Assembly (NCBI GenBank): GCA_039804105.1
Contig: JBDRZU010000001.1
Location: forward strand, 960,001-1,024,000
DNA: 64,000 nucleotides
Reading direction: 5' to 3'
Source: a candidate division WOR-3 bacterium
GTDB lineage: Bacteria; Hydrothermota; 32-111
Shown here: positions 45,229-62,933 of the stretch, one piece after another
Numbering within the stretch: position 1 is the first letter of the stretch
Layout of the letters: every line of letters starts with the position of its first letter
Made by a program: the position numbers and the translations under genes
Notes under the pieces: generated by a model
What the model was told of the DNA's origin: nothing
The model's database searches: none
What the model saw: only the letters and a program-made list of their open reading frames with translations

Positions 45229-47520
45229 TTAGTTGTCTTTATCTTTAAAAGTGTTGGGCAAAATGAAAAGAAAGAGTGAAAATAATGAAAGCTTTATATA
45301 TGATTCTGGAAGCATCGGAATGCCATTTGTGAACGCTAAAAACCATAAAAATATAAGAAGATTTAGCCATGCTAATAATATAAAAATGCTTTTCACAAAA
45401 GATGGAAGAAAAATGATATTTTTTAAAATTGAAACAACAACAAAAAATATTATTAAAAATATCAGAGATTGAATTATGTTAAACCTTAAAAAGTAAAGAG
45501 GATTCTGTATTTTTTCATATTTAAGTATCAAAAAATTCAACCTATCAAAAAAATCTCCCTTTTCATTTATTATCATATTGTAAGTTAAATTATCAAAACT
45601 TTCTTTTTTTCCTGTTATAAAATAATAGCCATATTTTACTTTTTCGTTTTTTATACTACCAAGTAATTTTATCTCTTTTTCTTTTTCCTGCTTCATATTC
45701 AATCTATCATATATACCTGCAAAAGTTGTTGTTCCCCAAAAATTGACTCTAAAATTTGTGTCCTTAACACTTTTTTGATAAAGCAATATTGAAGAAAAAA
45801 TTATTATAAAAAGATAAAAAAGCCCAGGAATTATTTTGAAAAAGTTTAAAATTTTCCTATTTTTTCTTTGTTTTGAAATAATCTGTCCTACTCTTTTCGG
45901 ATCATCCCACAAGTTTTCAACTTCATCACTTGATTTCAGATTTATTGATTGTTCAAAACCTAAAATTTTCTTTAAAATTTTAACAGATTTCAAATCGATC
46001 TCATTTTTTTCAAGTATTGATATTATTTTTCTGTTTTCAATACTGGTGAGTTGATCCTTTTCTGAATATCTTTCAAGAAGAATTCTCAAACAGGTAATTT
46101 TATCCTTTTCTGACAATCCTGAACTATAAACAAAAATAGTTATATTTCTTATCACTTTTACTTCATTATTCGAACTCTTTGTTAAATCTATATATTCATC
46201 TATAAAACTTATAAATTCTCCGTTCAGCATTAAATCGATTATTTTGTTCTCAGCGGCAGTAGATTTTCGTGATAGATATTTGAAAAGAAAACTTTTTAAA
46301 TTGTTAACAGTTATTTTTTTCCCAAAAATAACAAAAGGCAAACTTTTATTGTATTGATAGATCAACCTCATTATTTTTAAATCTTCATTTATACCCGAAT
46401 CTTTTAAACTTTGAATGAATTTTAAATCTTTTTTCTGTTTATTGAAATCACAAACTGATGAAAATTCACCTCGACCGAGATTTTTAATCGCCAAATTCCA
46501 GTTTTCTTCATTTTCAGCAATCCCATAAGAAAGATCTTTTAAAGAATTATAAAATTTCCCATTTAACTCAAAAGGTTTTGTTATACTTTCAGTTTCATCT
46601 TCCTCAACAACTTTTTCTATTTTTCCGATTATCCAATTATTGACCTGCTGAAAACCCCATCTTTTTTCGTAATCTCTAAGAAGTAATCCTTTTATCAGGA
46701 TTCTTAAATTTTGATCTATTTTTTCAGGTATCTCTATATTTTTTGTTGTGATATTCACAAAAACTACTTGTTGCGTAGCACCTTTAAAAGGTAACTCACC
46801 AAAAACCAACTCATAAAGAGTCATTCCCAATGTCCAATAATCCGATTCTTTTCTCATAGCACCAGATAACATTTCTGGAGACATATAACTTGTTGTTCCT
46901 CTGACCTGTGTGAACCTCATAGTTTGTTCATCATCAAGAAGGTTTGAAATTCCAAAATCAGAAAATATTACAGATTTAATATTGTCATTTCTTAACAATA
47001 GATTTGATGGTTTCAGATCAAGATAGATTATTCCTTCATCATGTAAAATTTTTAACCCTTTATTAACCTTTTTAACAAATTCTTTAGTTTCATTGAGCGA
47101 TAATTTTCTTTTTTTAACAAAATCTTTTAATGTCCCCGCTTGAGCGTACTCCATTACTTCATAATATCTTTCATTAACATCATCATATTCGAACTCATAA
47201 ATTTGAACAAAAAAATCTTTATTATTTTTGCTTAGGTTCATTATCTTTTTTATAACTTCACTCTTGGGTACTATGCCCTTTCTATAAAATTTTAGAAAAT
47301 ATTTTTCATTGTTCTTTGAAACAAGATATGTATCCGATTCTCCTCCTTGAGCAGGGAATTCCTTTTCAATGATATAATCTTTAATCTTTGTAGGTCTGAC
47401 AGAATTTTCTTGAACATTTTCTTTTCTTGACACTGAATAATTTTTTACTATTGTTTTTTCATCTTGTAAAATTTCATTATTTTCAAAATTTTTCCTTATA
47501 GTTTTATCATTATCAAACAT
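45229..47520 (-). CDS. Hanks-type Ser/Thr protein kinase with C-terminal TM helices
   Basis: QGGES, LK, VMEY..GTL, YLDLKPSN, DFG, GT..YMSPE, DYWTLG; about 4 hydrophobic segments in the C-terminal part. Confidence 0.92.
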   Translation of the reverse strand: MFDNDKTIRKNFENNEILQDEKTIVKNYSVSRKENVQENSVRPTKIKDYIIEKEFPAQGGESDTYLVSKNNEKYFLKFYRKGIVPKSEVIKKIMNLSKNNKDFFVQIYEFEYDDVNERYYEVMEYAQAGTLKDFVKKRKLSLNETKEFVKKVNKGLKILHDEGIIYLDLKPSNLLLRNDNIKSVIFSDFGISNLLDDEQTMRFTQVRGTTSYMSPEMLSGAMRKESDYWTLGMTLYELVFGELPFKGATQQVVFVNITTKNIEIPEKIDQNLRILIKGLLLRDYEKRWGFQQVNNWIIGKIEKVVEEDETESITKPFELNGKFYNSLKDLSYGIAENEENWNLAIKNLGRGEFSSVCDFNKQKKDLKFIQSLKDSGINEDLKIMRLIYQYNKSLPFVIFGKKITVNNLKSFLFKYLSRKSTAAENKIIDLMLNGEFISFIDEYIDLTKSSNNEVKVIRNITIFVYSSGLSEKDKITCLRILLERYSEKDQLTSIENRKIISILEKNEIDLKSVKILKKILGFEQSINLKSSDEVENLWDDPKRVGQIISKQRKNRKILNFFKIIPGLFYLFIIIFSSILLYQKSVKDTNFRVNFWGTTTFAGIYDRLNMKQEKEKEIKLLGSIKNEKVKYGYYFITGKKESFDNLTYNMIINEKGDFFDRLNFLILKYEKIQNPLYFLRFNIIQSLIFLIIFFVVVSILKNIIFLPSFVKSIFILLAWLNLLIFLWFLAFTNGIPMLPESYIKLSLFSLFLFILPNTFKDKDN

Positions 47521-47523
47521 CTA

Positions 47524-47964
47524 TTACCCCTCCTTTTCCACCTCTATTAAAAGGTCCCCGGCAAGTGAGATTTTATCTCCTTCTTTAATTTTATATTGTT
47601 TGTATTCTTCACATTTTTTTTCGTTTAAAAATGTTCCATTTGAACTTCCAAGATCCTCGATGAACCATTCGTTTCCTTTTTTCTCAACTCTAATATGTTC
47701 TCGTGATACTGTTTTTATATTTGAACAATCAATCTTTACCCCTTTTCGACCAATGATATCTCCACTTTCAATCTCAAATTTTTTGTTCATACAACTAAAA
47801 ATAATCGTTGTAATATTTTCATTTTCTTCTTTAACTACTTTATTATTCAAATCGTTTTCATCAACAGGTGAAATATCCGCAATATTATTATTACATTTTG
47901 AACAATTCATTTGAGTTATTTCATTCTTTTCATTACAAACTGGACAGATTTTTATCAATCCCAT
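47524..47964 (-). CDS. Zn-ribbon plus FHA domain protein
   Basis: CPVC...CSKC; IIGR, VSREH, DLGSSNGTFLN. Confidence 0.92.
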   Translation of the reverse strand: MGLIKICPVCNEKNEITQMNCSKCNNNIADISPVDENDLNNKVVKEENENITTIIFSCMNKKFEIESGDIIGRKGVKIDCSNIKTVSREHIRVEKKGNEWFIEDLGSSNGTFLNEKKCEEYKQYKIKEGDKISLAGDLLIEVEKEG

Positions 47965-47972
47965 AAAAACCT

Positions 47973-48527
47973 CTATTTTGGTATTCCTGAAATTATAAAC
48001 TCGTTTTCAAACTTAAATTTCTGAAAAATATTGTTTTTTCTTGTTCTTCTATATTTTTCATATTTTTCCCTTATCATATTTTTCTTGCTCAAAATTATCA
48101 TTTTTTGATTGTTCGATCCTCTCCAGATAAGGTTCGATTTTTTATCTTTTATGTAATTTCCATCGATTAAAACTGAAATATATTTCAAACAAGTTTTAAA
48201 ATTATTCCTTATATTCTCAAATCTATAACCGGTGTAAACTAAAATGTCATCATATTCTTGTTTTATTTCTTTTAATAGGATCAAAAGAGATGAATACTGT
48301 AAAAAAGGTTCTCCACCCGATATTGTTATTCCTTCACAACCAGATTTTTTAGATACAATCATTTTTTTTATCAGATCCTCAACCAAAATTTCAAAGCCAC
48401 CTTTTTTATCCCATGTGTGTTGTGACATACATCCCTTACATCTTATATCACATCCCTGTGTCCATAGAACAAACCTTTTCCCGGGTCCAAGATTGTAAAT
48501 TGGAAAATAAAAAGCACTTATTCTCAT
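47973..48527 (-). CDS. NrdG-like radical SAM (activase-type) protein
   Basis: LGPGKR, QGCDIRCKGC (CX3CX2C), ISGGEPF, YTGY, IDG.Y, RGSNNQ; ATGA overlap with the ATPase stop. Confidence 0.85.
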   Translation of the reverse strand: MRISAFYFPIYNLGPGKRFVLWTQGCDIRCKGCMSQHTWDKKGGFEILVEDLIKKMIVSKKSGCEGITISGGEPFLQYSSLLILLKEIKQEYDDILVYTGYRFENIRNNFKTCLKYISVLIDGNYIKDKKSNLIWRGSNNQKMIILSKKNMIREKYEKYRRTRKNNIFQKFKFENEFIISGIPK

Positions 48528-50347
48528 CTTTTTATTAACATTTTCCATCTGTTATCTTCCTTGACTATTTTTTCTATAATTAAATTTTCTCCTTCCTTTG
48601 ACTCTATTTCAAACAGAGTTCTTGAAAGTGTATTTATGAAAACATCTTCTATAACATTTCCTATTCCCCTTCCTCCCATCGATAAATCTTTTGTCGCTTC
48701 AGAATACACAGTTCCTAATGCTTCAGATGTTAAATTTACTGTTATCTTTTTTGTATCCAGAAGTTTGTCTTTTACTCTATTTATCATCTTATTCACGATA
48801 TTCAATGCAACATCTTTCCTGATAAAATCGAACACAACAATATTTTCACCAATTCTGTTTAAAATTTCTGCTCTATTTATTTTATACTTGAAAAAGTCAT
48901 TTATAGCATCTTTAATTCTTTTTTCTATTTCAGAATATTCCATCTCCGGACTTATTCTTTGTATTCTTGTTCCATCATCTTTTCTTTCATAGACACCAAG
49001 ATTACTTGTAAAAATTATCAAAGATTCAGAAAAATAGGCAAGTTCTCCCCTTCCAGAAGTTAATCGACCATCATCTAGTATTTGTAAAAATATATCGAGT
49101 ATTTTACTATGTGCCTTTTCTATCTCATCAAAAAGTATCACGGAAAATGGTTTTGCTTTTATCGAATTAATAAGTTCTCCCCCTGTTTCATATCCAACAT
49201 AACCGGGAGGAGCACCTATCAACCTCTGGTCCGAGTGTTCTTTTGAAAATTCACTCATATCAAATCTTATATAACTTGTCTCATTCCCAAAAATCAATTT
49301 TGTAATTGACTTTGCAAGTTCTGTCTTCCCAACTCCTGTTGGTCCTGCAAAAAACAAAACACCTTTTGGCCTCTGTGAAATAGAGGAATATTGTGAACCT
49401 GATAGATTGAACACTGATCTTTTGATTATATCTGCTGCTTTAGTCACGGCTTTTTCCTGTCCAAAAACATCTTTTTTCAAAATATCTTCACTCTTTTTTA
49501 TAACTTCGAGGTTTAATTTCGACCATGGGTTCTCTTCAATGCCAAGTTTATATCTTCTGATCGCTTCTCCTATTTCAAAAAAAGAAAGGTTTTCTTTTTT
49601 TGCGATCGATACAATCGATGCTATTTCCTGTCCTTGTAATTCTGTTGTTTGACCTATAAAGATTTCCTTAATCTCATTTACTTTTTGATTGTTTTCTTCA
49701 AACCCTTTTATATTTTTTGATAGTAACTCAACGATAATCTTTCTTGTTTCATAATCTGGCTTTGGGATATTTAACGATTTTATTCGATAATTCCCAATGT
49801 TAAACCAGGCAGGTAGATCATTATCTTTTTCAAGAATCCATAATACAAGGTTATATTGAGCCAAATTTTTCTCTTTGATAAACACTGGCTGACATACAAG
49901 CGATAATCTAAAAAGTTTATAATAAAATTCATCTATCTCATTTCTTGAAAGTTCACCATATCTTGATGAGAAACTCAGTTGTACTATTGATAAAATTTTT
50001 TTATTGTTTACTATTTTTTCTATAATCACTGCAGAATCCTTTAATCCACAATCAAGATAATTCTCTTTATTTATACTGTACCCTGTTATCTCTTTTGCAT
50101 AATCCTCTTTTCCTGAAACTAATTTAAAACCATATTTTGGTTCAAATGAAAATACGAGATCATACCCTTCCTCTTTTAAAACATAGTTCAAATAATCTTT
50201 TAGACCAAGAGTTGTCGGAATCACTGTATTCTGACTGTTCATATAATATGGATAAATATCATAAATGTTACCGCATAGTAAAAATTGAGATTTTATCGAA
50301 CAAAACCTTTTTAACTCTTTTGCCCATTTTGGATAGTAACCTGCCAT
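48524..50347 (-). CDS. AAA+ ATPase with one intact ClpA/B NBD2-type domain
   Basis: GPTGVGKTELAK, DMSEF, GAPPGYVGY, FDEIEKAH, LDDGRLT; no Walker A in the N-terminal half; GGGGAGG RBS before MAGYY. Confidence 0.9.
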   Translation of the reverse strand: MAGYYPKWAKELKRFCSIKSQFLLCGNIYDIYPYYMNSQNTVIPTTLGLKDYLNYVLKEEGYDLVFSFEPKYGFKLVSGKEDYAKEITGYSINKENYLDCGLKDSAVIIEKIVNNKKILSIVQLSFSSRYGELSRNEIDEFYYKLFRLSLVCQPVFIKEKNLAQYNLVLWILEKDNDLPAWFNIGNYRIKSLNIPKPDYETRKIIVELLSKNIKGFEENNQKVNEIKEIFIGQTTELQGQEIASIVSIAKKENLSFFEIGEAIRRYKLGIEENPWSKLNLEVIKKSEDILKKDVFGQEKAVTKAADIIKRSVFNLSGSQYSSISQRPKGVLFFAGPTGVGKTELAKSITKLIFGNETSYIRFDMSEFSKEHSDQRLIGAPPGYVGYETGGELINSIKAKPFSVILFDEIEKAHSKILDIFLQILDDGRLTSGRGELAYFSESLIIFTSNLGVYERKDDGTRIQRISPEMEYSEIEKRIKDAINDFFKYKINRAEILNRIGENIVVFDFIRKDVALNIVNKMINRVKDKLLDTKKITVNLTSEALGTVYSEATKDLSMGGRGIGNVIEDVFINTLSRTLFEIESKEGENLIIEKIVKEDNRWKMLIKR

Positions 50348-50413
50348 TTTTATTTCCTCCCCTTGTACTTTTTTCAATTAAAATAAACTTAAATTTTTCA
50401 TTAAAAGTAAATT

Positions 50414-51781
50414 TTATTCAAAAGAAGATTTTATATTTTTCTTTTCCTCTTGTCTTTTTTCTTTTAGATTTTCTTCTATTAAAACTTCATATTCTATGTT
50501 ATCAAATTCTGGTTCAACTACTATTAGGTCTTCAAACATTATTTCTTCCAAACTTATTTCTTTTAATATGTTTTTGTACAGATTGCACCATTTTCTTGCA
50601 TTATTTTCATCTTCTTTTTTTTCAAAGTCACTGACAGAATCCTTTCTTTTTGTACTTCTTTTTACATACTTTGTAATTATCTTTCCATCACTATAAGATA
50701 CTTTCACAACATATTCACCTTTTTTTATCTCTACATTTTCACCTTCAACAAGTTTTTCAAAAAGTTTTTCATCAAGTATAATCCATCCTTCCTCTTTTAC
50801 TTTTTTTTCAAATAAAGGCAATTTTTCTTTTAACTTGTTTTTTCTTTCCTCTTCATATAAAAATTGTTCAATTTCATCTTCCAACTTTTCATACTGGTTA
50901 GGATCAATTAAATCCTTTCGCATCAAATTCCCTAAATTTCTCATTAAAATCTGGTATTTTTGATTTTTATTTTCAATATTCATAACATTATTTCGATATT
51001 CCGATAATTTTTCTTTCAAAATTTCGTTCATCACAGATATTTTTTTTATGTTTTCAAAGTTGTAAACAAGTTGTGTATATAATGTATCAACTCTTGTTTT
51101 ATTGTCTGACTTCAAAATCTCTTCAAGAATTTTTTGATTTTCATTTTCATCTGATCCAGTAAAATTCTTTATTTTTTCATATATTAATTTTGCTTTTTCC
51201 TTTTTTTGTTGTAATTGAAGATTTTCATTTTTTGCATAAGAAATGTTTGAAATAACTTTTTCTTCTTTCAAATTCGAACCTTTCATTGCCAGATAGTTTT
51301 GATACTTATTCACTATATCATCATTTTTGATTTTTAGTTTCTCAAGTTTTTGTTTTTGTATATAAATATCTTTTTCATTTTTAATTTCATCAAGTTCTTT
51401 TTTTATTACATTTACCTCATTAAAAAAAATATTTCCAATATCACCAAAATTCAAATCACTTTCAATCTTTGTTATATTTGCATTGTTATTTAAAATAATT
51501 TCATTTTCCTCATTTTCAATTTTTTTTATTTCAGTAAACAACTTATGAAAATTTCTCCTCATATTTTTTTCAACCTGTTCCATAACGATTGAACTTCTTT
51601 CATATCTAATTTCACTGTTTATTTTTTTAGCAAGATCATTTATCTTAACTTGAATTTCATTTTTTCTTTTATCAGAAATTTTTGATATTTTTCTCTCACA
51701 TTTCATCAAGTTGTTAGTTAAAATGTTCATGATCCTTTTCTTCTCGTTCAAATAAATTCTTGTTTCTACATAACTACTCAT
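50414..51781 (-). CDS. Coiled-coil-rich hypothetical protein
   Basis: 455-aa E/K/N-rich ORF overlapping the PP2C stop. Confidence 0.75.
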   Translation of the reverse strand: MSSYVETRIYLNEKKRIMNILTNNLMKCERKISKISDKRKNEIQVKINDLAKKINSEIRYERSSIVMEQVEKNMRRNFHKLFTEIKKIENEENEIILNNNANITKIESDLNFGDIGNIFFNEVNVIKKELDEIKNEKDIYIQKQKLEKLKIKNDDIVNKYQNYLAMKGSNLKEEKVISNISYAKNENLQLQQKKEKAKLIYEKIKNFTGSDENENQKILEEILKSDNKTRVDTLYTQLVYNFENIKKISVMNEILKEKLSEYRNNVMNIENKNQKYQILMRNLGNLMRKDLIDPNQYEKLEDEIEQFLYEEERKNKLKEKLPLFEKKVKEEGWIILDEKLFEKLVEGENVEIKKGEYVVKVSYSDGKIITKYVKRSTKRKDSVSDFEKKEDENNARKWCNLYKNILKEISLEEIMFEDLIVVEPEFDNIEYEVLIEENLKEKRQEEKKNIKSSFE

Positions 51782-52538
51782 CTAAACACCTCACTATAAT
51801 AAAGGTTATATTATCTTTTCCTCCATTTTCGAGTGCTTTTTCAAGTAAAAATTTTCCTGTTTCTTCAAGATTTTCTTTTTGAAATCCCTCTTCCATTGTA
51901 TCGATTTCTACACTATCCCAGAGTCCATCGGAACATATTAAAAATGTATCTCCCTTTTCAAAACTTTTTTCAACTATATTCATTTGTGGTATATTTCCCG
52001 CTCCGTCCCCTGAAATTGATGAAGTGATAACATTATGGGGAACATTTTCTATCTTGTCAGATATTCCATTATCCTTCATCATTTCAAGAACAGAATGATC
52101 TTTTGATAACCTTTCAAGATATTTACCTGAAAGTTTATAAACTCTTGAATCACCAACATTAAAAACAACGATCTTCTCTTTGTCAAATGTAATTCCTGCA
52201 ACAGTTGTTCCAAGTCCCGATAATTTTTCATCATTTTGGGAAATATTGTCAAGTTCGATTTTTGATGATTTTATAAATTCTTCAATTTTTTTATCATTTT
52301 TTTCTATGATATAACCTCTTAAATGTTCAAGAACGATTTTACTTGCTATTTCTCCTCCCTTATTCCCTCCAATCCCATCAGTCACTGAAAAAATCGTTTT
52401 ACTTTTCTCAAAACAATGCGATGTTACAACCTCCATATTTGTTCTATTAAATATCATATCATCAACAAGTAAAGAATCTTCATTGTTTTCTCTTTTTAAT
52501 CCAATATTGGTAACAAATACCACCTTAAATTTTGTCAT
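51774..52538 (-). CDS. PP2C/PPM-family Ser/Thr phosphatase
   Basis: G.KRENNED, VTDGIGG, GTT, NVGDSRVY, DHS, CSDGL, GGKDNIT. Confidence 0.93.
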   Translation of the reverse strand: MTKFKVVFVTNIGLKRENNEDSLLVDDMIFNRTNMEVVTSHCFEKSKTIFSVTDGIGGNKGGEIASKIVLEHLRGYIIEKNDKKIEEFIKSSKIELDNISQNDEKLSGLGTTVAGITFDKEKIVVFNVGDSRVYKLSGKYLERLSKDHSVLEMMKDNGISDKIENVPHNVITSSISGDGAGNIPQMNIVEKSFEKGDTFLICSDGLWDSVEIDTMEEGFQKENLEETGKFLLEKALENGGKDNITFIIVRCLDE

Positions 52539-53514
52539 ATTCCTTCTCCCTGAATCTTTTGATATTCTCTTTTACCTTCTCTTCAGAAAAGTTCGCATAA
52601 CAATAAACACAAAGATGCATACATGTGTTATATTCTCCAACATCCTTACTAATAATACAACCACAATCAGCCCTCTGTCCTTTATCCTTCAATTTTTTGT
52701 TTTCAACATAGTCGGAAAAAAGATTTTCATCATACCCCAAAAATTCCATCAACTTTTTGTCATCCTTGAACAATCTAACCATAAATTCATCATCAACACA
52801 TTTATTCTTTTTTATTCCATAAACTGACAGATCAATGTTTTCAGCACATGTTGCAACTTCAAAATTATATTTTCCCCCAATCTCAGAAACATTCTTTGCT
52901 ATTTCAATTTTTTTATCATCATCAAATTCAATATATTTTATATTTTTTTTGCTTAAATTATTTTTTACCTTTGAGTAAATCTGAATATCAGCATAACTGA
53001 AAACAAGTTTTTCAGTATATCCTTTCAATTCTTTAGCAATATTTTCAATTTTTTTAGTCAATTTACCTATACTAAGTTGATCAGTCAGAATCAACGGATC
53101 AAATCTCCATATCACTTTCTCTTTTCCAATTTTTTCAGACAATTTTTTAAATATCTTAACTCTCTCTCTAAGATTTATCACATTTGGCTCAAACCCTTCT
53201 TCTTCATAATCGTTCAAAGTGAACTGAAAATAGTATCCAATGTTTCTTTCATCAAGCAGTTTTAAGTATGGGATTATCGGTTTCGGATTTTTTGTCCAGA
53301 AAACTATAACTCTCGTCTCATCAAAAAAGACATACGACTCTTTGTTGTTGAAAGGGTTCACCCATTTTATATAGCCCTTCTCAAAGCATCTAAAAAACCA
53401 CTCAGAATGAAACGCAGGTATATCGGTTGCTCTACTTGCTGAAATTATCACAGGGCAAACACCTTCCTTTTTTTGTCCATCAATAATCTTTTCAATTTTT
53501 TTCCATTTATACAT
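52525..53514 (-). CDS. DUF1848 family protein (radical-SAM-like Cys motif)
   Basis: IISASRATDIPAF, FWTKNP, WRFDP, DVGEYNTCMHLCVYCYAN. Confidence 0.9.
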   Translation of the reverse strand: MYKWKKIEKIIDGQKKEGVCPVIISASRATDIPAFHSEWFFRCFEKGYIKWVNPFNNKESYVFFDETRVIVFWTKNPKPIIPYLKLLDERNIGYYFQFTLNDYEEEGFEPNVINLRERVKIFKKLSEKIGKEKVIWRFDPLILTDQLSIGKLTKKIENIAKELKGYTEKLVFSYADIQIYSKVKNNLSKKNIKYIEFDDDKKIEIAKNVSEIGGKYNFEVATCAENIDLSVYGIKKNKCVDDEFMVRLFKDDKKLMEFLGYDENLFSDYVENKKLKDKGQRADCGCIISKDVGEYNTCMHLCVYCYANFSEEKVKENIKRFREKEYDKI

Positions 53515-54549
53515 ATAAACTCCAAAAATATCCTTCTTTTGTATTTTTTGTTAGTTCATTACATTTTTCAATCTTACCATTTTTACAAATGTTAAAACCT
53601 GAAGATGTTTCAGCAGCAAGATATTTTGAATTATCAGAAACTTTTTTATTTATCAATTTCAAAGCAATTTCTTTTTCAAGGATTATTTTATAATTTGTTT
53701 TAAAACTATCATAAATCATTGATCCAAACCCAAAATCTCTTATTATTTGAAAATTTATCTGTGTGAAGCAATCTCCATTATTGTTAACGCAATTGTGATG
53801 ATTTAAATTGCATTGAACAGGTAGTAAAGTTGTATAATTTTTATTGTTTCTGTAAAATTTTTTTAATTCCTGATTCATAATTATCGGGAAAAATCTCCCA
53901 TCATTGTTTTTATCGCAAACATCTGTTAAAAATATTACACCATCTTTGTTTAAGTATTTTACCATTTCTTCTGTAAAAATTCTATAATTTTCTTCTTTAT
54001 TTCCTGTTCTGTAAAATTCATTGATCATATTGAAACATAAAATGATATCAAATTTTTCTTTTAGTGATTCCATCAAATTTTTCAATCTGTTAGAAAATTT
54101 TTCTTCTGATGTAAAATCATAAAGTAGATAAGTTGAATTTGTGCTTGTATTATTTTTTATATCAAAATAATATTTATACTTAAAAAAGTATTTTTTCATT
54201 ATAGGGTTTGAATCAATAAGATAAAACTTAAAATTTCATAATTGAATTTGTTATTTATAAATGCTTTAATCATTCCAAAAATTTCAGGTGCTACACCAGA
54301 CCCAATATCGAGTATTTTTAATTCTTTTTTATTTTTAATAATTTCAGTATAGTCAGTATTTTCTATCAAATTATTGAACACAAGATATGAAACAACTTTG
54401 CTTCTCACAAAATATGTTCCAAGATATTCTAAAACTGTCTCCTCATCAGCATTTTTAAAAGTGATTATCCCACCACCCCTTTGTTTGTATTTTCCTCCAA
54501 TTGTCTCAAGAAACCTAAAAACTTCATTACTTATTCTTATGTTTATCAT
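53507..54549 (-). pseudogene. SAM-dependent methyltransferase-like gene split by a 1-nt frameshift near 54227-54237
   Basis: Motif I ILDIGSG in ORF 54199-54549; motif II-like FYLIDSNPIM lies in the frame of ORF 53507-54199, which also has FDIILCFNMINEF. Confidence 0.65.
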
Positions 54550-54567
54550 ACCCCTCCCTTTAAATTT

Positions 54568-54756
54568 TTATTTTACCTTCTTAAATATTTTTCTCCAAAA
54601 AAGTCCTGTTCCTGGAATTCCAACACTTATTGATTTTTCTTTACCTGATGTAAATTTTAAACCTCTAACCCCTGACGAAACACTAACACCACCTTTATTG
54701 ATATTCAACCATAAACCCGGTAAAATTTTTATAACTTTTTTAAACCTTATTCCCAA
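54568..54756 (-). CDS. Stand-alone DUF4236 small protein
   Basis: MGIRFKKVIKILPGLWLNINKGGVSVS.G...SVGIPGTGL; GGAGG RBS. Confidence 0.85.
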   Translation of the reverse strand: MGIRFKKVIKILPGLWLNINKGGVSVSSGVRGLKFTSGKEKSISVGIPGTGLFWRKIFKKVK

Positions 54757-54768
54757 TTTTGCCTCCTT

Positions 54769-54942
54769 TTATGGATTGAAAATTTTATATACTATTCCAA
54801 TAAAAATAAAACCAATTATGATTCCAAATATTCCAAATGACGGATCAAAAACAAAAAGCAAAAATCTACCAATAATTATCATCAAAAAAAGTAATCCAAT
54901 CATAGTCAGAATAAACTTTATAAAGATTTTTAAATTTTCCAT
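54769..54942 (-). CDS. Small two-TM membrane protein
   Basis: GGGAGGG RBS before MENLK; two hydrophobic segments. Confidence 0.65.
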   Translation of the reverse strand: MENLKIFIKFILTMIGLLFLMIIIGRFLLFVFDPSFGIFGIIIGFIFIGIVYKIFNP

Positions 54943-54998
54943 ATCCCTCCCTTTACACAAATAAAACTGAAATTTATTTTAAAAAACAAAAATATTTT

Positions 54999-55553
54999 TT
55001 AGTAAGGTAAATCTTCTTCATCAACATCATAGAATTCATCAAAATCATAAATAAAATAATTCTTTATTCTTTCTCCAATATCTTTTTTTATTTCATTTTC
55101 AAGTACCTTCAAATTTGTTGAAATATCATTTAGTAGATTTTCAATTTCAATTCTAAATATAGGGAAATATCTAATTTCATAAAGTTCGCCAATCATTATA
55201 TTTTTCTTTCTCATCTCAACTTCAAAAATATCAGCTAATATTGGAAAGAAAGTTTTGTTGCATATTACAGTGTAAATAAAATCCGATTTAATAATTGCTG
55301 GAGCATTTGCAATTTCTTTATTATATAAAATAACCGAAGCAATATCTCTTGGCTCAGATAAAAAATTTGTTAAAACAAATTTTAATATATCTTTGTTTTT
55401 ATCATTGCAAAAAAGATATTCAAACAATTGATCAAGATTCATAATGTTTTTTATATCATAATTTTTACCAAAAAGATAAAATGTGAAATCAGCATATTTC
55501 AAGAGGTAATTGCAGATTGTTTCAACAGTGATCTGTTTTCTTCCGTTTAACAT
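54999..55553 (-). CDS. Hypothetical protein, probable paralogue of 55684-56247
   Basis: AAGGAG RBS; shares Q.T...I...L..Y..F, F.N..N....KF and FIYD. Confidence 0.7.
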   Translation of the reverse strand: MLNGRKQITVETICNYLLKYADFTFYLFGKNYDIKNIMNLDQLFEYLFCNDKNKDILKFVLTNFLSEPRDIASVILYNKEIANAPAIIKSDFIYTVICNKTFFPILADIFEVEMRKKNIMIGELYEIRYFPIFRIEIENLLNDISTNLKVLENEIKKDIGERIKNYFIYDFDEFYDVDEEDLPY

Positions 55554-55554
55554 A

Positions 55555-55653
55555 TTACTCCTTTTTTAAATTTTTTAATATGATAAATCTGACAACAATC
55601 ATTTTAGAAACAATAAAAATTACACATAAAAATACTGGTAAAAAATTTACCAT
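55555..55653 (-). CDS. 32-aa hydrophobic peptide, absent from the ORF track
   Basis: MVNFLPVFLCVIFIVSKMIVVRFIILKNLKKE; GGGAGGG RBS; its 3' end contains the RBS of the next gene. Confidence 0.55.
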   Translation of the reverse strand: MVNFLPVFLCVIFIVSKMIVVRFIILKNLKKE

Positions 55654-55683
55654 TATCTCTTCCCTCCCTTTTTATTTAATTTT

Positions 55684-56247
55684 CTAAACAAAACAAAATG
55701 GATCTATAAAATCATCGTAAATGAAAGATTTATAAGTACCTTTAATAAAAAAAGATCTATTTTTTAATTCCTCTATAAATATTGTTGTATAAATGTTATA
55801 AATATCTTTAAAATTTTTCTCTATATCTTTCACAGCATTTTTAAAATCTGGTGTTGTATTACCAGTTTTTATTATATCTATTAAAATAGTCTCTTTTATG
55901 TTATAACGATTAAGAATTCTACCGAGTTCAAAAGAACAATGTACCATTTCATTTATCGGCCTTATAAAATAAAGAAACTTTGCAACCTGTTTTAAATTTT
56001 CAGTATCTATTTTACTAAAAAAATAATAAGGAATACCCGTACGAACAATATGAATATGAAAATCTATTAAAAATTTATATACTTCTCTATTTTCTTCATT
56101 GCTAAAAATACTTCTAAGTATTTCATCTGCACTTCTTTCATCATCTGAAAATTTATGATTATATAATTTACAATAGAATTCCATATACTCAATAAGAAAC
56201 TTTATTATCCCATCCATTGTTACTTGATTATTTTTTTTCTTTTCCAT
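55684..56247 (-). CDS. Hypothetical protein, probable paralogue of 54999-55553
   Basis: AGGAGGG RBS; shared motifs as above. Confidence 0.7.
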   Translation of the reverse strand: MEKKKNNQVTMDGIIKFLIEYMEFYCKLYNHKFSDDERSADEILRSIFSNEENREVYKFLIDFHIHIVRTGIPYYFFSKIDTENLKQVAKFLYFIRPINEMVHCSFELGRILNRYNIKETILIDIIKTGNTTPDFKNAVKDIEKNFKDIYNIYTTIFIEELKNRSFFIKGTYKSFIYDDFIDPFCFV

Positions 56248-56920
56248 TTACCCTCCTTTTTTGTTATTTTTTCAAAAAACAAAACCTTATGACTTCCAGT
56301 AAAATTGTTCAGATGAATTTGAATTTTGAGGGTTTTTAATATAAATAAACTTAAATTTTTTTGAAAAACAAAAAATTTTTAAAATTTTTTTTATCTCCAG
56401 TTTATTCTAATAACACAACTTCTTTCTGAATTATTTAATAATTTAAAAGCAATTATTTTTCAAGAAAGGTTAGACATCCTGTTTGAAAACTATCATAATT
56501 AAAGATTGAAGAAAAAAATTTAGGGAAATTTGATACATATAAATTTTATAAGTTTCATCTTTAGAAATTTCTTTTTTTAGTTTTTCAAATTCTATATTGC
56601 CATAACAAAATAAATATTTCACCTTTTCAAATAAATCATTGACCTTTTTCCTGCACTATCTCTTTTAATTTACAAAATTTATAAATTTTAGGTGAAATTT
56701 TCATCTATTTATCCACTTAGAAAAATTCTTTTTTCTTTCTAAAACAAAAGAAATTTTACAAAACAAGAAAATGTTTCAAAATTAGGATCTTGATATTAGA
56801 ATTTTTTAAAATTTTTATTTTTTACTATCCTTATAACCTAAGGTTTTAAATACAGTTACAGAAAAATGTCAAAAAGTCAAGCACCGTCCCTAAATTAACC
56901 AAATTATAATAATAATAAAA

Positions 56921-58048
56921 TTATTCGTTTCCATATTCTCTATTTAGATAATCTGCTGCCCAATTTAAATTTACACTATTATTATCAGATATTTCGATTC
57001 CAAATCTTCCTCCAAAATCATCTCCTTTTTTATATATTCCAATTAATATTTTCTTATCAGTATCAACTTTGAAATAGATTCCTTTTATTGCTGCCTGTCC
57101 ATAATAGGGCATCGAATAGCAGGTTTTGATCCATTTATTTTTCTTCCAAATCTTATAGACAAAATCTTCAAGACCTTTTGGATAATGATGTTCACTAAAT
57201 GTTGGTTCTTTTCTTTCATCATCATTCAAACTAATTAAATTTGGAGCTTTAGGATACCTAATTCTAAAAGATTCAAGATATATAGTTCCAAGTGTATTTA
57301 ATGAATACAAACGTCCTTCTTTTGTATCGATTGTATCAATAAAGACTTTCAATTTTTCATCCAATACAATTTCATTAATATTATCAATAGTATCTTCTCT
57401 TTCTAAGAGCGACAACAGATCAGCATTTTTCCCTAAAATATCATAGTCCAACGAAATAGGTAATGGGGGAAAATCTATAATCTCATTAAATTTTTCATGT
57501 TTATAAAATACTGGAATATTTAATGTTTGTCCTAAAATTACTGCAACTGCTATTTGTGCCTTATATCCTCCAGTTGCATCTATTGCAATATATTCAGATC
57601 CATATTTTTTAATCATTTTACCAAGTTTCTTAACAAGATTTCTTAAACCTTCTTTTTTAAATTTTTTAGGATCTTTATCTTGAAGCAATTCAATTATTTC
57701 AACTTCAACATTTTTAAGATTTAAATCTTTTCTATTTTCATAGTATAGTTGTAGAAATTTGCCTGTATTTTTGCCATCTTCAGTATCAGAGACAAAAAAT
57801 ACAATATTTTCTAATGTTAACCATCTTTTCTTTCTTATTTCTTCAATTGTATTTATCTCTGCACCACAAAATCTTTCTGAAGGATTTATGGATTGAAATA
57901 GTTCAGATAATTTGTCCCATTGCTTTTTTTCAAAAGAATCTTTAATTTCTTTCCAATATTCTGGTTTATTTTCAAAATTTTCATTTAATTTTTTCAAATT
58001 TCCTTCAAATAAACTTGCTCCAACAGTACACAATAAAGTCGTTTTCAT
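56921..58048 (-). CDS. CRISPR-associated CARF protein, APE2256/Crn1-like N-terminus with an extra C-terminal domain
   Basis: LLCTVGASL, GAEIN, SDTEDG, IDATGGYKAQ, YKHEKF..I..FPPLP; directly downstream of the array. Confidence 0.85.
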   Translation of the reverse strand: MKTTLLCTVGASLFEGNLKKLNENFENKPEYWKEIKDSFEKKQWDKLSELFQSINPSERFCGAEINTIEEIRKKRWLTLENIVFFVSDTEDGKNTGKFLQLYYENRKDLNLKNVEVEIIELLQDKDPKKFKKEGLRNLVKKLGKMIKKYGSEYIAIDATGGYKAQIAVAVILGQTLNIPVFYKHEKFNEIIDFPPLPISLDYDILGKNADLLSLLEREDTIDNINEIVLDEKLKVFIDTIDTKEGRLYSLNTLGTIYLESFRIRYPKAPNLISLNDDERKEPTFSEHHYPKGLEDFVYKIWKKNKWIKTCYSMPYYGQAAIKGIYFKVDTDKKILIGIYKKGDDFGGRFGIEISDNNSVNLNWAADYLNREYGNE

Positions 58049-58146
58049 ATTTTTTCCTCTTTTAATTTTTTTAATATTAAATTCTATCAATTTTTAAAAA
58101 TATCATCCAACTTTTAGATTATCCAGTTTCAAAAATATTATATAAA

Positions 58147-61006
58147 CACCAATGACCAAAAATGGTGCGATTAAGACCCAGATTAAGAGGCTGTTCCATA
58201 AGATTTCGCCACAGGGCATCTGGTTTCCATACCAAAAATGGTGCGATTAAGACAGATACCATCAAACATCAAATGGAAAGGGAACATTAGCAGTAGTTTC
58301 CATACCAAAAATGGTGCGATTAAGACTAGTGGAAAATAAAGAAGTAGATGTTCAGAAATGACTTATTATGTTTCCATACCAAAAATGGTGCGATTAAGAC
58401 CTTGACAAGAAAGTGAGTTTTAAAACTTTAAATTTCGAAGTGTTTCCATACCAAAAATGGTGCGATTAAGACGTATAGAGTAATTGGCTTAGATAGGAAA
58501 GTATCTTTTATAGTTTCCATACCAAAAATGGTGCGATTAAGACTTAAAATTGAAACTAAAAATTTTACATATTATTACGAAATGTTTCCATACCAAAAAT
58601 GGTGCGATTAAGACGAAAAAATGAAAAAAGAGGTTTTAAAAGAAAAACTTTTTAATGGTTTCCATACCAAAAATGGTGCGATTAAGACTCCAAAAAATGT
58701 ATCAGCATACATATTGCTGTCAGAAATGTTTCCATACCAAAAATGGTGCGATTAAGACGTTACCAGAGAACAAATCATTAACTTTCTTATGCCAGCTCGT
58801 TTCCATACCAAAAATGGTGCGATTAAGACCGAAGTGGGGATTGTATTTTTGACTGCTATTTCTTAACAAGGTTTCCATACCAAAAATGGTGCGATTAAGA
58901 CTGGAAGACATTGACAAATGGACTGTTGCACACGAATTGGCAAGGTTTCCATACCAAAAATGGTGCGATTAAGACAGAAGAAGACATAGAACAAATAGAA
59001 ATGATTGAACAACGTTTCCATACCAAAAATGGTGCGATTAAGACATTATTTTCTTCAAATTCTGATGGTTTTAAATTGAAAAGAGTTTCCATACCAAAAA
59101 TGGTGCGATTAAGACGGAGGTAAAAATGATACTTGACATTTCAAGAAATTGTGATGAGTTTCCATACCAAAAATGGTGCGATTAAGACCATCTTGGTATA
59201 TCTGATGGTAGTGTTGAAGTATGTGGCGAACCGTTTCCATACCAAAAATGGTGCGATTAAGACGGAGAAAGAGCCGAATATTGCATGGCAAAATCTCTTA
59301 ACCAAATAGGTTTCCATACCAAAAATGGTGCGATTAAGACGTGAGGAGGAAAAAATGAGACCAATGCCAAGAAAACTATATTATAGGTTTCCATACCAAA
59401 AATGGTGCGATTAAGACCTTGGAACATATGGTAAAAAGTTGGCAATAACTAGTATAAGTTTCCATACCAAAAATGGTGCGATTAAGACTGGATACGCATA
59501 TCCTCTAGTTGCAGATAATGACATACCAGTTTCCATACCAAAAATGGTGCGATTAAGACGGTATTATCTGCCCCCGTCATTTCTGTCTAATGGTAAAGTT
59601 TCCATACCAAAAATGGTGCGATTAAGACGTACAGTACATGTTGGTCTACATGTGATATACATGTGTAGGTTTCCATACCAAAAATGGTGCGATTAAGACC
59701 AAGAAGCACAGATATTAGTAAACGAGAACGTGCCAGATAAGTTTCCATACCAAAAATGGTGCGATTAAGACCAGTGGAGGAAAAAAGGATGAATAAAATA
59801 GAAAACATTATAAGGTTTCCATACCAAAAATGGTGCGATTAAGACACATAGAAAGGTATATGTTGTATATGTGACAAGATTTTCTGTGTTTCCATACCAA
59901 AAATGGTGCGATTAAGACATAATGTCAATTATGATTTTCCAGAAGCGCCATATGTTGGAAATGTTTCCATACCAAAAATGGTGCGATTAAGACCAAATAA
60001 AAGAAATAGGTTGGATTTTATTCCAGATAAAGTAGTTTCCATACCAAAAATGGTGCGATTAAGACCTATAGAAGCAAAAAATGAAAAGAAAGCAGAAATG
60101 ATAGCAAGTTTCCATACCAAAAATGGTGCGATTAAGACCTGATATAATATACCACATTGAATGGTATTTTTTCTCTTAGTAGTTTCCATACCAAAAATGG
60201 TGCGATTAAGACTCATCAATATATGATTCTGGCATCGAATACTGGGTTCCTGGTTTCCATACCAAAAATGGTGCGATTAAGACTATGGTTTATAAAAATA
60301 AAAAAATGGTTAATAAAGGAGGAAAAGTTTCCATACCAAAAATGGTGCGATTAAGACAATAAAAGAAATAGGTTGGATTTTATTCCAGATAAAGTATAAG
60401 TTTCCATACCAAAAATGGTGCGATTAAGACAGGAAAAGATGAATAAAATAGAAAACATTATAAGAGTTATTAATGGTTTCCATACCAAAAATGGTGCGAT
60501 TAAGACTGTAAAGAAAATAAAATTGGTATAGATATTTTACAAAAAAGTTTCCATACCAAAAATGGTGCGATTAAGACATTGTTTGAAAGAGTATCTCCTA
60601 TTAAACTTACATCATCATGTTTCCATACCAAAAATGGTGCGATTAAGACCAAAAAATTATAAAACCAGAAAAATTACCTGTTATAGCAGTTTCCATACCA
60701 AAAATGGTGCGATTAAGACTTGAAGCAGAACTAGATATATCATTGACAATATCATCAAGTTTCCATACCAAAAATGGTGCGATTAAGACTTTCATTAGAA
60801 TAGAACGTATCCAACATACTATCATTCCGTTTCCATACCAAAAATGGTGCGATTAAGACGACATCCCAGAATACATAAGACCAGCAGTGGATGCTGCTAT
60901 AGGTTTCCATACCAAAAATGGTGCGATTAAGACAAAAACAATGAAAAATTGGCATCATATGCTGCAACTATTATTGTTTCCATACCAAAAATGGTGCGAT
61001 TAAGAC
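58147..61006 (-). CRISPR. CRISPR array: 39 identical 31-nt repeats plus one degenerate trailer repeat, 39 spacers of 38-46 nt
   Basis: Repeat GTTTCCATACCAAAAATGGTGCGATTAAGAC on + (minus strand GTCTTAATCGCACCATTTTTGGTATGGAAAC, ending in an ATGGAAAC handle); degenerate copy at 58147-58177; leader at the cas2 end. Confidence 0.99.
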
Positions 61007-61158
61007 AGGATCATAAATTTAATCTTATTATATACTTATTTTAAAATTTGTCAAGATTTTTCTGTCGATCGGTGGTCGTGCAAAAAACCCGGGGGATCGA
61101 CAGAAAACTAAGTTGCTATAATTAAATTTAATAATATTAAATAAAAATTTAAAAAAAA
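61007..61158 (-). promoter_or_regulatory. CRISPR leader with promoter and 13-bp inverted repeat
   Basis: Minus-strand TTGACA (61054-61049), 16 bp, TATAAT (61032-61027); TTTTCTGTCGATC (61058-61070) and GATCGACAGAAAA (61095-61107). Confidence 0.85.
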
Positions 61159-61428
61159 TTATAGAAAATTATCCATTTCTTCGGAAGTTATCCCCACTCC
61201 ATGCAATTCTCTGTAAAGCCATCTTTTGTCTCTCATATAATAAATTATTAAACCATCTTCATTTTGATCACAGTTTTGAGAAAAATAATGTTTTATCTCT
61301 CTGATTTCCGACTCTGTCAATTCACCTTCAAAAACAGATCTCTGAACCCATTTTAAATATTTTTTTAAAAACTTATGAAATTTGTTAACTCTTTTTTCAC
61401 CAACATCATAAACAATAATCACATACAT
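61159..61428 (-). CDS. cas2: CRISPR-associated endoribonuclease Cas2
   Basis: MYVIIVYDV, RVNK, WVQRSVFEGEL. Confidence 0.96.
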   Translation of the reverse strand: MYVIIVYDVGEKRVNKFHKFLKKYLKWVQRSVFEGELTESEIREIKHYFSQNCDQNEDGLIIYYMRDKRWLYRELHGVGITSEEMDNFL

Positions 61429-62418
61429 TTAATATTCCATTTTAAAAGGTGTATATTTTTCAAGTCCAATGATATGTTTTAAAATTTTATAACACTCAGT
61501 CCTGATAAGCATTCTGTATGATATATATTTTTCCATTTTTTTGTAATAAATTGTCTGCCCCAACCTTTTATCATATTCCTTCAAAACAATTCTTTTTCCT
61601 TTGTCGTTAAGAAAACAGATTTCTTGTTCACTTTCAAAATGAGAGTCATCAACCATATTTTTGTTTAAAATGTAAAAAATTATCCTATCAACAACTATCG
61701 GTTTAAAAATATCTGCTATATCAAGTGATAAAGAGTATCTCCGTTCTCCTGGCTCATGCAAAAAACTGATTGTTGGATCAAGTTGAGTTATATAAATTTC
61801 AGAAAGCACAGTCGAATATAAAACAGAATTTAAAAATGAAATCAAAGTGTTAACAATATTATTTGGAGGATTTTTTATTCTTTTTTCAAATTCAAACTCT
61901 TCATTTAGCCATTTTTTCCATGAATCATAATAAATCTTTCTTATGTTTGCTTCTGTTCCCATAATCTCGTTTATACTCTCTTTTGTATCAAGTTTTTCAA
62001 TAAAAAGTTTTATATTTTCGATTTCATTTTTTAAATCAATTTCTCTTCTGTTATAATATTGCATAATACTCAATATGTTTTCAGAACTTCCTTTAACAAT
62101 ATTTTTTGCAAGATATGATCTTTGTTCTATGTTTTTATAATGTTCAATTTGACATAAAAGAGTTTTACCTGAAACAGTTCTATCCATCGGGAAAAAACTT
62201 CCTGTATAATACCCATAATAACTGAAAAAATGTATAGGTATCTGATGACCTGCTAAAAGATTAACAAAATGAGTGTTCAAATCTATACTTCCAAAAAGAT
62301 ATAAGTTTTCAATATTTTCTATTGGAATTGCCTCCTCTTTTCCATCACTTTCAAAATATACAGTATTATCCTTTCTCTTTAATCTTCCATTTGAAATGAT
62401 AAAATAATTTTTGTCCAT
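61429..62418 (-). CDS. cas1: CRISPR-associated integrase Cas1, resembling subtype I-B
   Basis: G.LKRKDNT, FSYYGYY.GSF.P, MGTEA, N.LISF.NS, SFLHEP..RR.SLSLDIADIFKP; start moved to MDKNY. Confidence 0.95.
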   Translation of the reverse strand: MDKNYFIISNGRLKRKDNTVYFESDGKEEAIPIENIENLYLFGSIDLNTHFVNLLAGHQIPIHFFSYYGYYTGSFFPMDRTVSGKTLLCQIEHYKNIEQRSYLAKNIVKGSSENILSIMQYYNRREIDLKNEIENIKLFIEKLDTKESINEIMGTEANIRKIYYDSWKKWLNEEFEFEKRIKNPPNNIVNTLISFLNSVLYSTVLSEIYITQLDPTISFLHEPGERRYSLSLDIADIFKPIVVDRIIFYILNKNMVDDSHFESEQEICFLNDKGKRIVLKEYDKRLGQTIYYKKMEKYISYRMLIRTECYKILKHIIGLEKYTPFKMEY

Positions 62419-62423
62419 AAAAA

Positions 62424-62915: not shown

Positions 62916-62933
62916 CAGAAATTCAATAACTGA

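Follow-up and report, generated by a model that had tools for sequence, protein, structure and literature searches.

A candidate phospho-switched conflict cassette pairing a Clp-type ATPase with a radical SAM enzyme, beside a separate methyltransferase-DUF1848 module, in a candidate division WOR-3 bacterium

Between a kor operon and a CRISPR-Cas locus of a candidate division WOR-3 bacterium, eight tightly packed genes encode a methyltransferase, a DUF1848 protein, a PP2C phosphatase, a helical protein, a Clp-like AAA+ ATPase, a radical S-adenosylmethionine (SAM) enzyme, an FHA protein and a membrane kinase. The locus lies in a 64,000-nucleotide stretch (GenBank assembly GCA_039804105.1, contig JBDRZU010000001.1, positions 960,001 to 1,024,000 of the forward strand), here called the window, and all coordinates are those of the window unless another locus is named. 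The question raised is whether these genes form one system and what such a system would do; a first-pass annotation made from the letters alone had proposed a single undescribed, phospho-switched conflict system. The string is two adjacent, separable modules, A (45229-52538) and B (DUF4236, methyltransferase and DUF1848 genes). Module A is read here as a cassette for conflict (anti-phage or anti-plasmid) with a phospho-switch and an unfoldase/radical SAM output, lying beside the separate module B, and a probability of about 0.5 is given to this reading. That module A serves defence or conflict in some way is held to be somewhat more probable, a little better than an even bet.

Nine open reading frames (ORFs) lie within 45229-54549, all on the minus strand (ORF list and coordinates), the methyltransferase being split in two. 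Read along that strand, module B contributes the split SAM methyltransferase (53507..54549, ORFs 54199-54549 and 53507-54199; weak Methyltransf_31 match) and the DUF1848 protein (52525..53514, 329 amino acids; PF08902, 1.9e-93). Module A follows with the PP2C phosphatase (51774..52538, 254 amino acids; PP2C_2, 4.9e-12), the helical "coiled-coil" protein (50414..51781, 455 amino acids; no family, alignments A5 and A8), the Clp/Hsp100-type AAA+ ATPase (48524..50377, 617 amino acids; AAA_2, 2.2e-45, and ClpB_D2-small), the NrdG/PflA-like radical SAM enzyme (47973..48548, 191 amino acids; Fer4_12, 1e-35, and Radical_SAM), the zinc-ribbon and FHA protein (47524..47964, 146 amino acids; Pfam FHA, 5.1e-16) and the Ser/Thr kinase (45229..47520, 763 amino acids; Pfam Pkinase, 3.2e-41). 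Neighbouring genes overlap by 8 nt (methyltransferase/DUF1848), 14 nt (DUF1848/PP2C), 8 nt (PP2C/helical protein) and 25 nt (ATPase/radical SAM), or are separated by 8 nt (radical SAM/FHA) and 3 nt (FHA/kinase). The gap between the helical protein and the ATPase is 36 nt to a TTG start, or 66 nt if the ATPase begins at the ATG at 50347, which gives 607 amino acids and is the start of the identical protein P0001. The co-orientation and the overlapping or nearly abutting ends described at first pass were thereby confirmed, as were the domain assignments (by Pfam, NCBIfam and PADLOC), except for the intactness of the methyltransferase. A scripted search of the window proteins with consensus patterns found intact catalytic motifs in the kinase and PP2C, and intact FHA, Walker A/B, pore-loop and CX3CX2C motifs.

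In order to follow these genes elsewhere, 80 loci encoding the N-domain of the ATPase were assembled: 6 full-length loci from species genomes, 3 from relatives of the window genome and 71 from metagenomes, many of them on short contigs. Metagenome loci were collected with alignment A3, and locus ORFs were searched with the window proteins and with profiles iterated from them. A radical SAM gene was found at 47 of the 80 loci, a kinase at 40, an FHA gene at 39, a helical-protein gene at 38 and PP2C at 26; the corresponding counts were 2 for DUF1848, 1 for the methyltransferase and 2 for DUF4236. For the 24 loci flanked by at least 4 kb in each direction, the figures were 19 (radical SAM), 18 (kinase), 15 (FHA), 15 (helical protein) and 12 (PP2C), with 1, 1 and 2 for DUF1848, methyltransferase and DUF4236, in a set that includes a close relative of the window (G001), the near-duplicates L107 and L108, and two loci (L118 and L122) with a longer ClpB gene upstream and all partners absent. 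Kinase, FHA and PP2C genes thus co-occur with the ATPase and radical SAM genes across phyla, as the gene-neighbourhood prediction had it. The further claim that all eight genes are one conserved set failed on the DUF1848 and methyltransferase counts (each 1/24).

The cassette core consists of the ATPase, the radical SAM enzyme, the kinase and the helical protein, and FHA and PP2C join it in most non-proteobacterial versions. The window holds this arrangement: an ATPase with a D1-like domain, then an NrdG-like radical SAM enzyme, a kinase and a helical protein with a conserved C-terminal domain. In 42 of the 47 loci with a radical SAM gene, that gene directly follows the ATPase gene. In four others (L094, L141, L146 and L150) it stands elsewhere, still with FHA and PP2C, and in L121 the FHA gene lies between ATPase and radical SAM, with PP2C upstream beside the helical protein and kinase. 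At L094 (12883-16324) GmrSD and RhuM genes, and at L150 (1569-2964) ParE and DUF1848 genes, are inserted between ATPase and radical SAM; at L141 (13933-17881) seven small ORFs (126-211 amino acids, no Pfam family) lie between kinase and radical SAM.

The ATPase consists of a D1-like domain without Walker A (residues about 13-290) and a ClpB-D2-like module (residues about 290-617) with Walker A at 345, the GYVG pore loop at 392 and Walker B at 413. Its first 290 residues match no Pfam family, and a PDB sequence search with the N-domain profile returned nothing below E 0.05. In the AlphaFold model (pLDDT 90.2), residues 13-617 superpose on the D1+D2 domains of ClpC, ClpB and ClpA with Z 30-31.5 over ~510 residues (root-mean-square deviation 4.8-6.2). 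Because the model aligns with Clp D1+D2, the N-domain is interpreted as a D1-type AAA+ domain that has lost its Walker A. The two-tier D1+D2 fold of class I Hsp100 proteins is present, the Clp N-domain and the middle domain are missing, and the protein is best read, from its model, as a Clp-type unfoldase of two tiers, the upper ring being dead. Assignment as a ClpB, ClpA or ClpC equivalog was rejected on the single Walker A (residue 345) and on scores under the cut-offs (250.3 bits against 1232.1 for TIGR03346 ClpB, 217.1 against 993.15 for TIGR02639 ClpA).

A search with the N-domain returned 66 clusters of 580-660-amino-acid proteins, none with a name more specific than "AAA family ATPase" or "Clp ATP-binding subunit"; their sources include WOR-3, Nitrospirota, Campylobacterales and Calescibacterium. 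Its profile matched 1,204 representatives at E ≤ 1e-3 and 804 at 1e-10 among 1.84 billion, and the family has mesophilic members in Pseudomonas, Bradyrhizobium and Rhizobium. The full-length ATPase was found in 4 of 40 relatives of the window genome; of 301 genomes sampled from the (Pseudomonas-type) genus of L001, 12 have it.

The radical SAM enzyme carries CX3CX2C at residues 33-40 (CDIRCKGC) and GGEP at 78-81, both invariant in 36 family members. It resembles NrdG/PflA activases nearly over the full length of NrdG, with the CX3CX2C and GGEP motifs shared: residues 21-151 cover positions 13-151 of the 154-position NrdG model, and the closest solved relative is the PFL activase 3c8f (1.8e-12). 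Its score against TIGR02491 NrdG (116.3 bits) falls just below the cut-off of 126.1. Identity as NrdG proper was rejected on that score and on the lack of pairing with NrdD. Unlike NrdG and PflA, the cassette enzyme does not stand beside NrdD or a PFL-type enzyme, and it bears a 40-residue C-terminal extension ending in a family-invariant Gly-Ile-Pro (alignment A6), which could be a docking tail. In the window protein these residues are G188, I189 and P190 of 191 (47973-47985). The NrdD of the genome lies on another contig (C2:256027-257928) with its own Fer4_12 activase gene directly downstream; as NrdD has this separate activase, the cassette enzyme is an extra, dedicated paralogue. Its homology points to the formation of a protein radical. 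A complex prediction of ATPase and radical SAM enzyme scored 0.00 and carries no weight either way.

The helical protein matched no Pfam, NCBIfam, PADLOC or PHROG family. It is modelled as mostly helical (pLDDT 85.3). A variable helical part gives way near residue 318 to a conserved alpha/beta domain at the C-terminus, in which G332, D391 and W398 are invariant (alignments A5 and A8). The family comprises 38 ORFs in the collected loci and is fast-evolving. Foldseek found no PDB match at E ≤ 0.001, and the fold is not vWA by model and structural alignment. VIA-align (wide) returned helical bundles at Z ≤ 11.5, under the level trusted for helical proteins; comparison of the end domain with KA1, COR and appendage domains gave Z of about 8, and no fold was assigned. 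An ESM Atlas search with the C-terminal domain gave a best score of 0.88 to unnamed clusters and was not used.

Writer, reader and eraser of the proposed phosphothreonine switch all retain their motifs. The kinase has a Hanks domain at about 59-294 (YLDLKPSN, DFG and SPE), a middle domain conserved across the family up to roughly residue 490 and, from a membrane scan, predicted membrane segments at 557-575, 686-704 and 712-730. The FHA protein carries two CxxC pairs (CPVC and CSKC) together with GR, SREH and SSNGT, and is the sole PF00498 match in the genome. PP2C shows NNED, DGIGG, DGLW and DNIT, and scores 159.7 bits against the NCBIfam Stp1/IreP model (cut-off 230). The genome holds one further Hanks kinase, of housekeeping type, in a 563-amino-acid frame (contig 1, 19907-20665).

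Across loci the kinase is hypervariable beyond the kinase domain and the conserved middle region. Depending on the locus, its C-terminus is an NHL propeller, Sel1, TPR or RCC1 repeats, a beta-helix, SH3/Ig domains, DUF5122, membrane segments or a helicase-nuclease, and the repeat forms often lie behind a predicted membrane segment. The helicase-nuclease form is proteobacterial: a ~2,100-amino-acid protein joins an N-terminal Ser/Thr kinase to DUF4011, an SF1 helicase and an MTES_1575 nuclease, in the order ATPase, radical SAM enzyme, kinase fusion and helical-protein homologue. The last of these, a 450-amino-acid protein, was linked to the window family by hhalign (probability 98.1%, E 1.2e-13). 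This fusion was present in five examined loci: three species genomes (labelled Pseudomonas sp., Bradyrhizobium and a proteobacterial metagenome-assembled genome), one metagenome contig and a conjugative Rhizobium plasmid. No helicase domain was found in the window kinase (Pfam, membrane scan). In a published account (PMC10250203), a flank of the Pseudomonas aeruginosa hotspot cDHS1 is described as having a "DUF4011 gene plus radical SAM protein". These flanking genes may represent the proteobacterial cassette, retained there as core genes of the species.

The cassette is widespread, sparse and horizontally mobile. The ATPase occurs on 9 plasmid records, 5 of them typed conjugative. On one strand of a 44-kb plasmid of Aristaeella lactis (L180, 1-17032), a separate DUF4011 protein is followed by kinase, hypothetical, FHA, radical SAM, ATPase, PP2C, DUF6273 and second kinase genes. 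NCBI annotation gives only generic names in the Rhizobium and Aristaeella plasmid records.

To measure enrichment near defence genes, ORFs of at least 120 amino acids flanking 21 cassette loci were compared with PADLOC at E ≤ 1e-12. Flanks of 18 randomly drawn housekeeping ClpB loci, after three partly matching the N-domain had been dropped, served as the control. Cassette flanks gave 21 matches among 144 ORFs, in 13 of 21 loci, against 2 among 126 ORFs, in 2 of 18 loci, for the control (Fisher p = 0.002 by locus), the control being a rough one drawn from other source collections, and limited to the 7 nearest ORFs per locus, whereas all flanking ORFs were taken for the cassette loci. With generic matches set aside, 9 of 21 cassette loci and 1 of 18 control loci remained (p = 0.011). 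The matches include type I and IIG restriction, AbiE, Wadjet JetA, PtuA-like/PDC-M62A, MkoA-like and DrmD-like genes. The expected association with defence genes was thus recovered.

Under the proposed mechanism, the kinase would sense a trigger, or carry an effector, through its hypervariable C-terminal part. Phosphothreonine marks would be read by the FHA protein and erased by PP2C, and this switch would control the unfoldase and its radical SAM partner. As the output, a hexameric Clp-type unfoldase whose D1 ring is dead and whose D2 ring is live would operate together with the radical SAM enzyme. The two probably have a protein as their substrate, and the C-terminal domain of the helical protein may be a scaffold or target.

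Several observations weigh against a conflict system. The window version has no recognisable toxic effector save the membrane part of the kinase, and most variants are without an obvious toxin. The rSAM gene is missing from 5 of the 24 well-flanked loci (L118, L122, L003, L005 and L157), and L103 and L142 have ATPase and FHA genes with radical SAM absent. A profile search found the N-domain absent from phage records, 8 of the 21 loci in the defence test had no PADLOC neighbour, and the roughness of the control counts on the same side. Lone ATPase homologues also stand among housekeeping genes: with Rho, aconitase and a transporter at L118, beside RtcB and Mla genes at L003, at L005, and, by shared ORF layout with L118 only, at L122.

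Some of these points favour a signalling or proteostasis module, in which a receptor kinase senses envelope or environment cues and, via FHA and PP2C, controls a Clp-like remodeller and a radical SAM enzyme that repair or modify host proteins. The many kinases with membrane segments followed by repeat domains are receptor-kinase-like and agree with it, as do the lone homologues, the shortage of toxins and the loci without a defence neighbour. Such a module is, however, hard to reconcile with the patchy distribution (4/40 and 12/301 genomes), with plasmid carriage, with defence-gene neighbours well above the control and defence genes inserted inside the cassette, and with the helicase-nuclease fused to the kinase in Proteobacteria or encoded beside it on the Clostridia plasmid. 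The window site, moreover, adjoins CRISPR-Cas and varies between sister species. Proteostasis is therefore regarded as unlikely, while being the most serious alternative to a conflict role.

A more specific form of the conflict reading would make radical protein chemistry the immune output: a receptor-like kinase switch would license an unfoldase with a pseudo-ATPase ring to hand a protein, which may be its own helical partner or one of the invader, to the radical SAM enzyme. This is a long shot. A glycyl-radical domain or motif was absent from all cassette partners (Pfam and motif look). The G332-aromatic pair of the helical protein was rejected as a glycyl-radical site, as it sits at a long-helix end in the model and not at a hairpin tip, and the stretch around the invariant G279 of the ATPase presumably corresponds to the ordinary Clp "WTGIP" motif. 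Both candidate glycines look structural.

Whether the methyltransferase and DUF1848 genes belong with module A was judged from related genomes and loci. The methyltransferase, taken at first pass as intact, consists of two ORFs: a DNA alignment with the sister genome G001, whose 347-amino-acid gene is intact, shows a single-base deletion at 54235/54236. The extra base, with an open frame, is also present in one contig each of two public hot-spring runs from different studies (X1 and X3). Since G001 and the X1 and X3 contigs carry it, the break is either strain-specific or an assembly error. The DUF1848 protein has a C-terminal CX3CX2C (C298, C302 and C305) and matches PADLOC RTasDUF1848 (1.1e-42); PDB sequence searches with it and with the methyltransferase gave nothing below E 0.05. 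Upstream, a 62-amino-acid DUF4236 protein (54568..54756, minus strand; PF14020, 6e-18), the sole PHROGs match, probably belongs to module B. Its gene precedes the methyltransferase in G001, G002 and G003, and follows the kinase in G008.

The modules come apart in both directions. G008, of another genus in the same family, carries PP2C, helical protein, ATPase, radical SAM, FHA, kinase and DUF4236 genes without methyltransferase or DUF1848, flanked by a type I restriction gene, PDC-M24A/B and an AbiEi gene. G002 and G003, of the genus of the window, have the DUF4236, methyltransferase and DUF1848 trio directly beside fumarase and kor genes, at the same chromosomal site as module B of the window and with the cassette absent. 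Because they carry the trio there without it, the 7.3-kb cassette (45229-52538) is present or absent at the site between DUF1848 and the ferredoxin/fumarase genes. In a third run (X2) the cassette end, on a contig covering 51777-53092, is joined directly to a CRISPR repeat at 53092, and 53114-56585 has no coverage in that run. This form keeps the cassette and is without the 5' part of DUF1848, the methyltransferase, DUF4236 and two genes for proteins of 184 and 187 amino acids. In G003 (L171, 706-6574) HSP70-like, three unknown and OmpA-like genes lie upstream of the trio at the same site. The site between fumarase/kor and CRISPR-Cas is a variable island, and module B is a different unit, inactivated in this assembly by the frameshift.

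The rival account, one eight-gene system in which methyltransferase and DUF1848 act with the cassette, for example in a methylation self-mark as in MADS or BREX, draws on the end-to-end gene overlaps in the window and G001 (14 nt at DUF1848/PP2C), on the kinase, whose best PADLOC match is mad6, and on the DUF1848 gene between ATPase and radical SAM at L150. That DUF1848 gene accompanies a ParE toxin gene and no methyltransferase, however, and the 1/24 counts, the separate occurrence of the two modules in G008 and in G002/G003, the frameshift and the failure of MADS membership (below) leave this account very unlikely. The pairing of methyltransferase and DUF1848 fits a separate small unit: in the available part of Mestre et al. 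(NAR 2022, PMC9226505), UG25 defence-associated reverse transcriptases link methyltransferase function genetically to DUF1848. Compared with UG25 as described there, module B has no reverse transcriptase, encodes its methyltransferase separately and includes DUF4236 as a further partner.

Slighter still is the case for a cluster of the ribosomally synthesized and post-translationally modified peptide (RiPP) kind, in which kinase and radical SAM enzyme modify a small precursor (DUF4236 or the product of a 63-amino-acid ORF), which the ATPase and membrane parts would then process or export. Small ORFs do adjoin cassette genes, and the kinase weakly matches the lanthipeptide synthetase LanL (5.1e-15, 54.9 bits, cut-off 650). 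Yet the radical SAM enzyme is of the NrdG/PflA activase type, with no SPASM-type peptide maturase model above cut-off (NCBIfam), the small ORFs are not regular companions of the cassette (DUF4236 in 2/80 loci), and the loci show no conserved lyase, cyclase or transporter genes. The 63-amino-acid protein (54769..54960, minus strand), with two membrane segments (membrane scan) and a strong ribosome-binding site, is conserved in the sister genome G001 only.

No PADLOC-DB 2.0.0 system and no NCBIfam 20.0 model above its curated cut-off was matched by the cassette, in line with the claim that it is no named system. The six-gene cassette seems undescribed: no published description was found, in a literature whose large discovery papers have supplementary candidate lists that could contain it. 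The nearest working analogy is the threonine phosphorylation pathway of the P. aeruginosa H1 type VI secretion system, which comprises the kinase PpkA, the PP2C phosphatase PppA, Fha1 and ClpV1. There, as here, a membrane Hanks kinase, a PP2C, an FHA protein and a Clp/Hsp100-type ATPase are encoded together, and in NCBIfam the TssH/ClpV model matches the ATPase (1.2e-58) and the TagH model the FHA protein (1.9e-6), both below threshold. The cassette differs from that pathway in the dead D1 and missing Clp N-domain of its ATPase and in having a radical SAM enzyme and a helical protein as core components. TssC/VipB (PF05943) was not found in the genome, which is 85% complete, and the operon has no type VI structural genes.

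Mokosh type I systems consist of MkoA, a kinase joined to a helicase, and MkoB, a PLD nuclease. The window kinase matches MkoA (2.1e-23), and the proteobacterial variant fuses its kinase to a DUF4011/SF1 helicase and nuclease. In contrast to Mokosh, the window kinase is without a helicase and has no PLD partner, and the ATPase, radical SAM enzyme and helical protein are not Mokosh parts. Membership was rejected, as the window has no kinase-helicase fusion and no PLD gene. The TerY-P triad was likewise set aside: kinase and PP2C are present, and no vWA family (Pfam E ≤ 0.01), hence no TerY, was found among the operon proteins, as the first-pass annotation had stated.

The Esr pathway (bioRxiv 10.64898/2026.09.08.750141) and the vWA-MoxR ternary systems (Kaur et al. 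eLife 2020, PMC7159879), as far as the available parts of these sources describe them, share with the cassette a variable sensor, an AAA+ protein, a kinase/phosphatase pair and an FHA output, with repeat or beta-propeller sensors that diversify. Compared with them, the cassette ATPase is Clp-type and not MoxR, no vWA was found in the window, and the radical SAM enzyme is of NrdG type; the gene set itself is not described for either in those parts. MADS, in the portion of its account available (bioRxiv 10.1101/2023.03.30.534895), is similar as an operon of about eight genes with kinase, methyltransferase and ATPase that acts beside CRISPR-Cas, and its detection model makes MAD6, MAD7 and MAD8 mandatory. 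The window differs in that the kinase domain alone matches and the methyltransferase is frameshifted and outside the conserved cassette (1/24 loci). Membership was rejected, with no mad7 match, mad8 at E 0.0012 on the AAA core and mad2 at E 4.2e-4. That the cassette is a diverged member of a named system (MADS, Mokosh type I, Dodola, PDC-M37 or the TerY-P triad) is next to negligible in probability: the PADLOC matches of the kinase (mad6, 1.9e-46; MkoA, as above) and the ATPase (PDC-M37B, 2.9e-29; DolB, 1.7e-19) are all confined to the generic kinase or AAA core, NCBIfam antiphage_MADS6 scores 101.5 bits against a cut-off of 460, two of the three mandatory MADS components are missing or marginal, and no vWA/TerY, PLD nuclease or DolA-like gene is in the operon.

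The neighbours named at first pass are present, with ferredoxin, fumarase and kor genes on one side and the CARF gene and CRISPR-Cas on the other. For the promoter assigned to kor, a promoter-like site does lie at 45224-45197 (10/12 matches); such sites are not in excess in the promoter/terminator scan, with 86 observed against 76.6 ± 7.4 in shuffles. Between DUF4236 and the CARF gene lie the genes of the 184- and 187-amino-acid proteins (54999-55553 and 55684-56247, minus strand); the proteins are weakly alike (BLASTP E 3e-5 over 55 residues), match no Pfam or PHROGs family and recur in G001 only. There follow a CARF-family CRISPR ancillary protein (56921..58090, minus strand; Cas_APE2256, 3.7e-34, and PADLOC CARF7--CARF_DUF2103, 1.7e-102), a CRISPR array of ~40 repeats (58150..61045; repeat families) and cas2, cas1, cas4 and a RAMP gene (61159-63980, minus strand; Pfam Cas2, Cas1, Cas4 and RAMPs). 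The label "type III" agrees with the CARF/Csm6 matches, and the effector genes fall beyond the window.

Should module A prove to be a defence system, a type would be added that has a Clp-type unfoldase and a radical SAM enzyme of the protein-activase kind together at its core, a pairing for which we know of no described defence system. In that event bacteria would also provide an example of a complete phosphothreonine writer, reader and eraser set tied to an immune output. Recognition of the two modules averts a false "methylation-linked" reading and leaves the DUF4236, methyltransferase and DUF1848 genes as a second small unit of interest. The N-domain family is large enough for study, and its mesophilic members occur in hosts with routine phage and plasmid assays. 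The swapped C-termini of the kinases offer a natural experiment on the exchange of sensing and effector parts.

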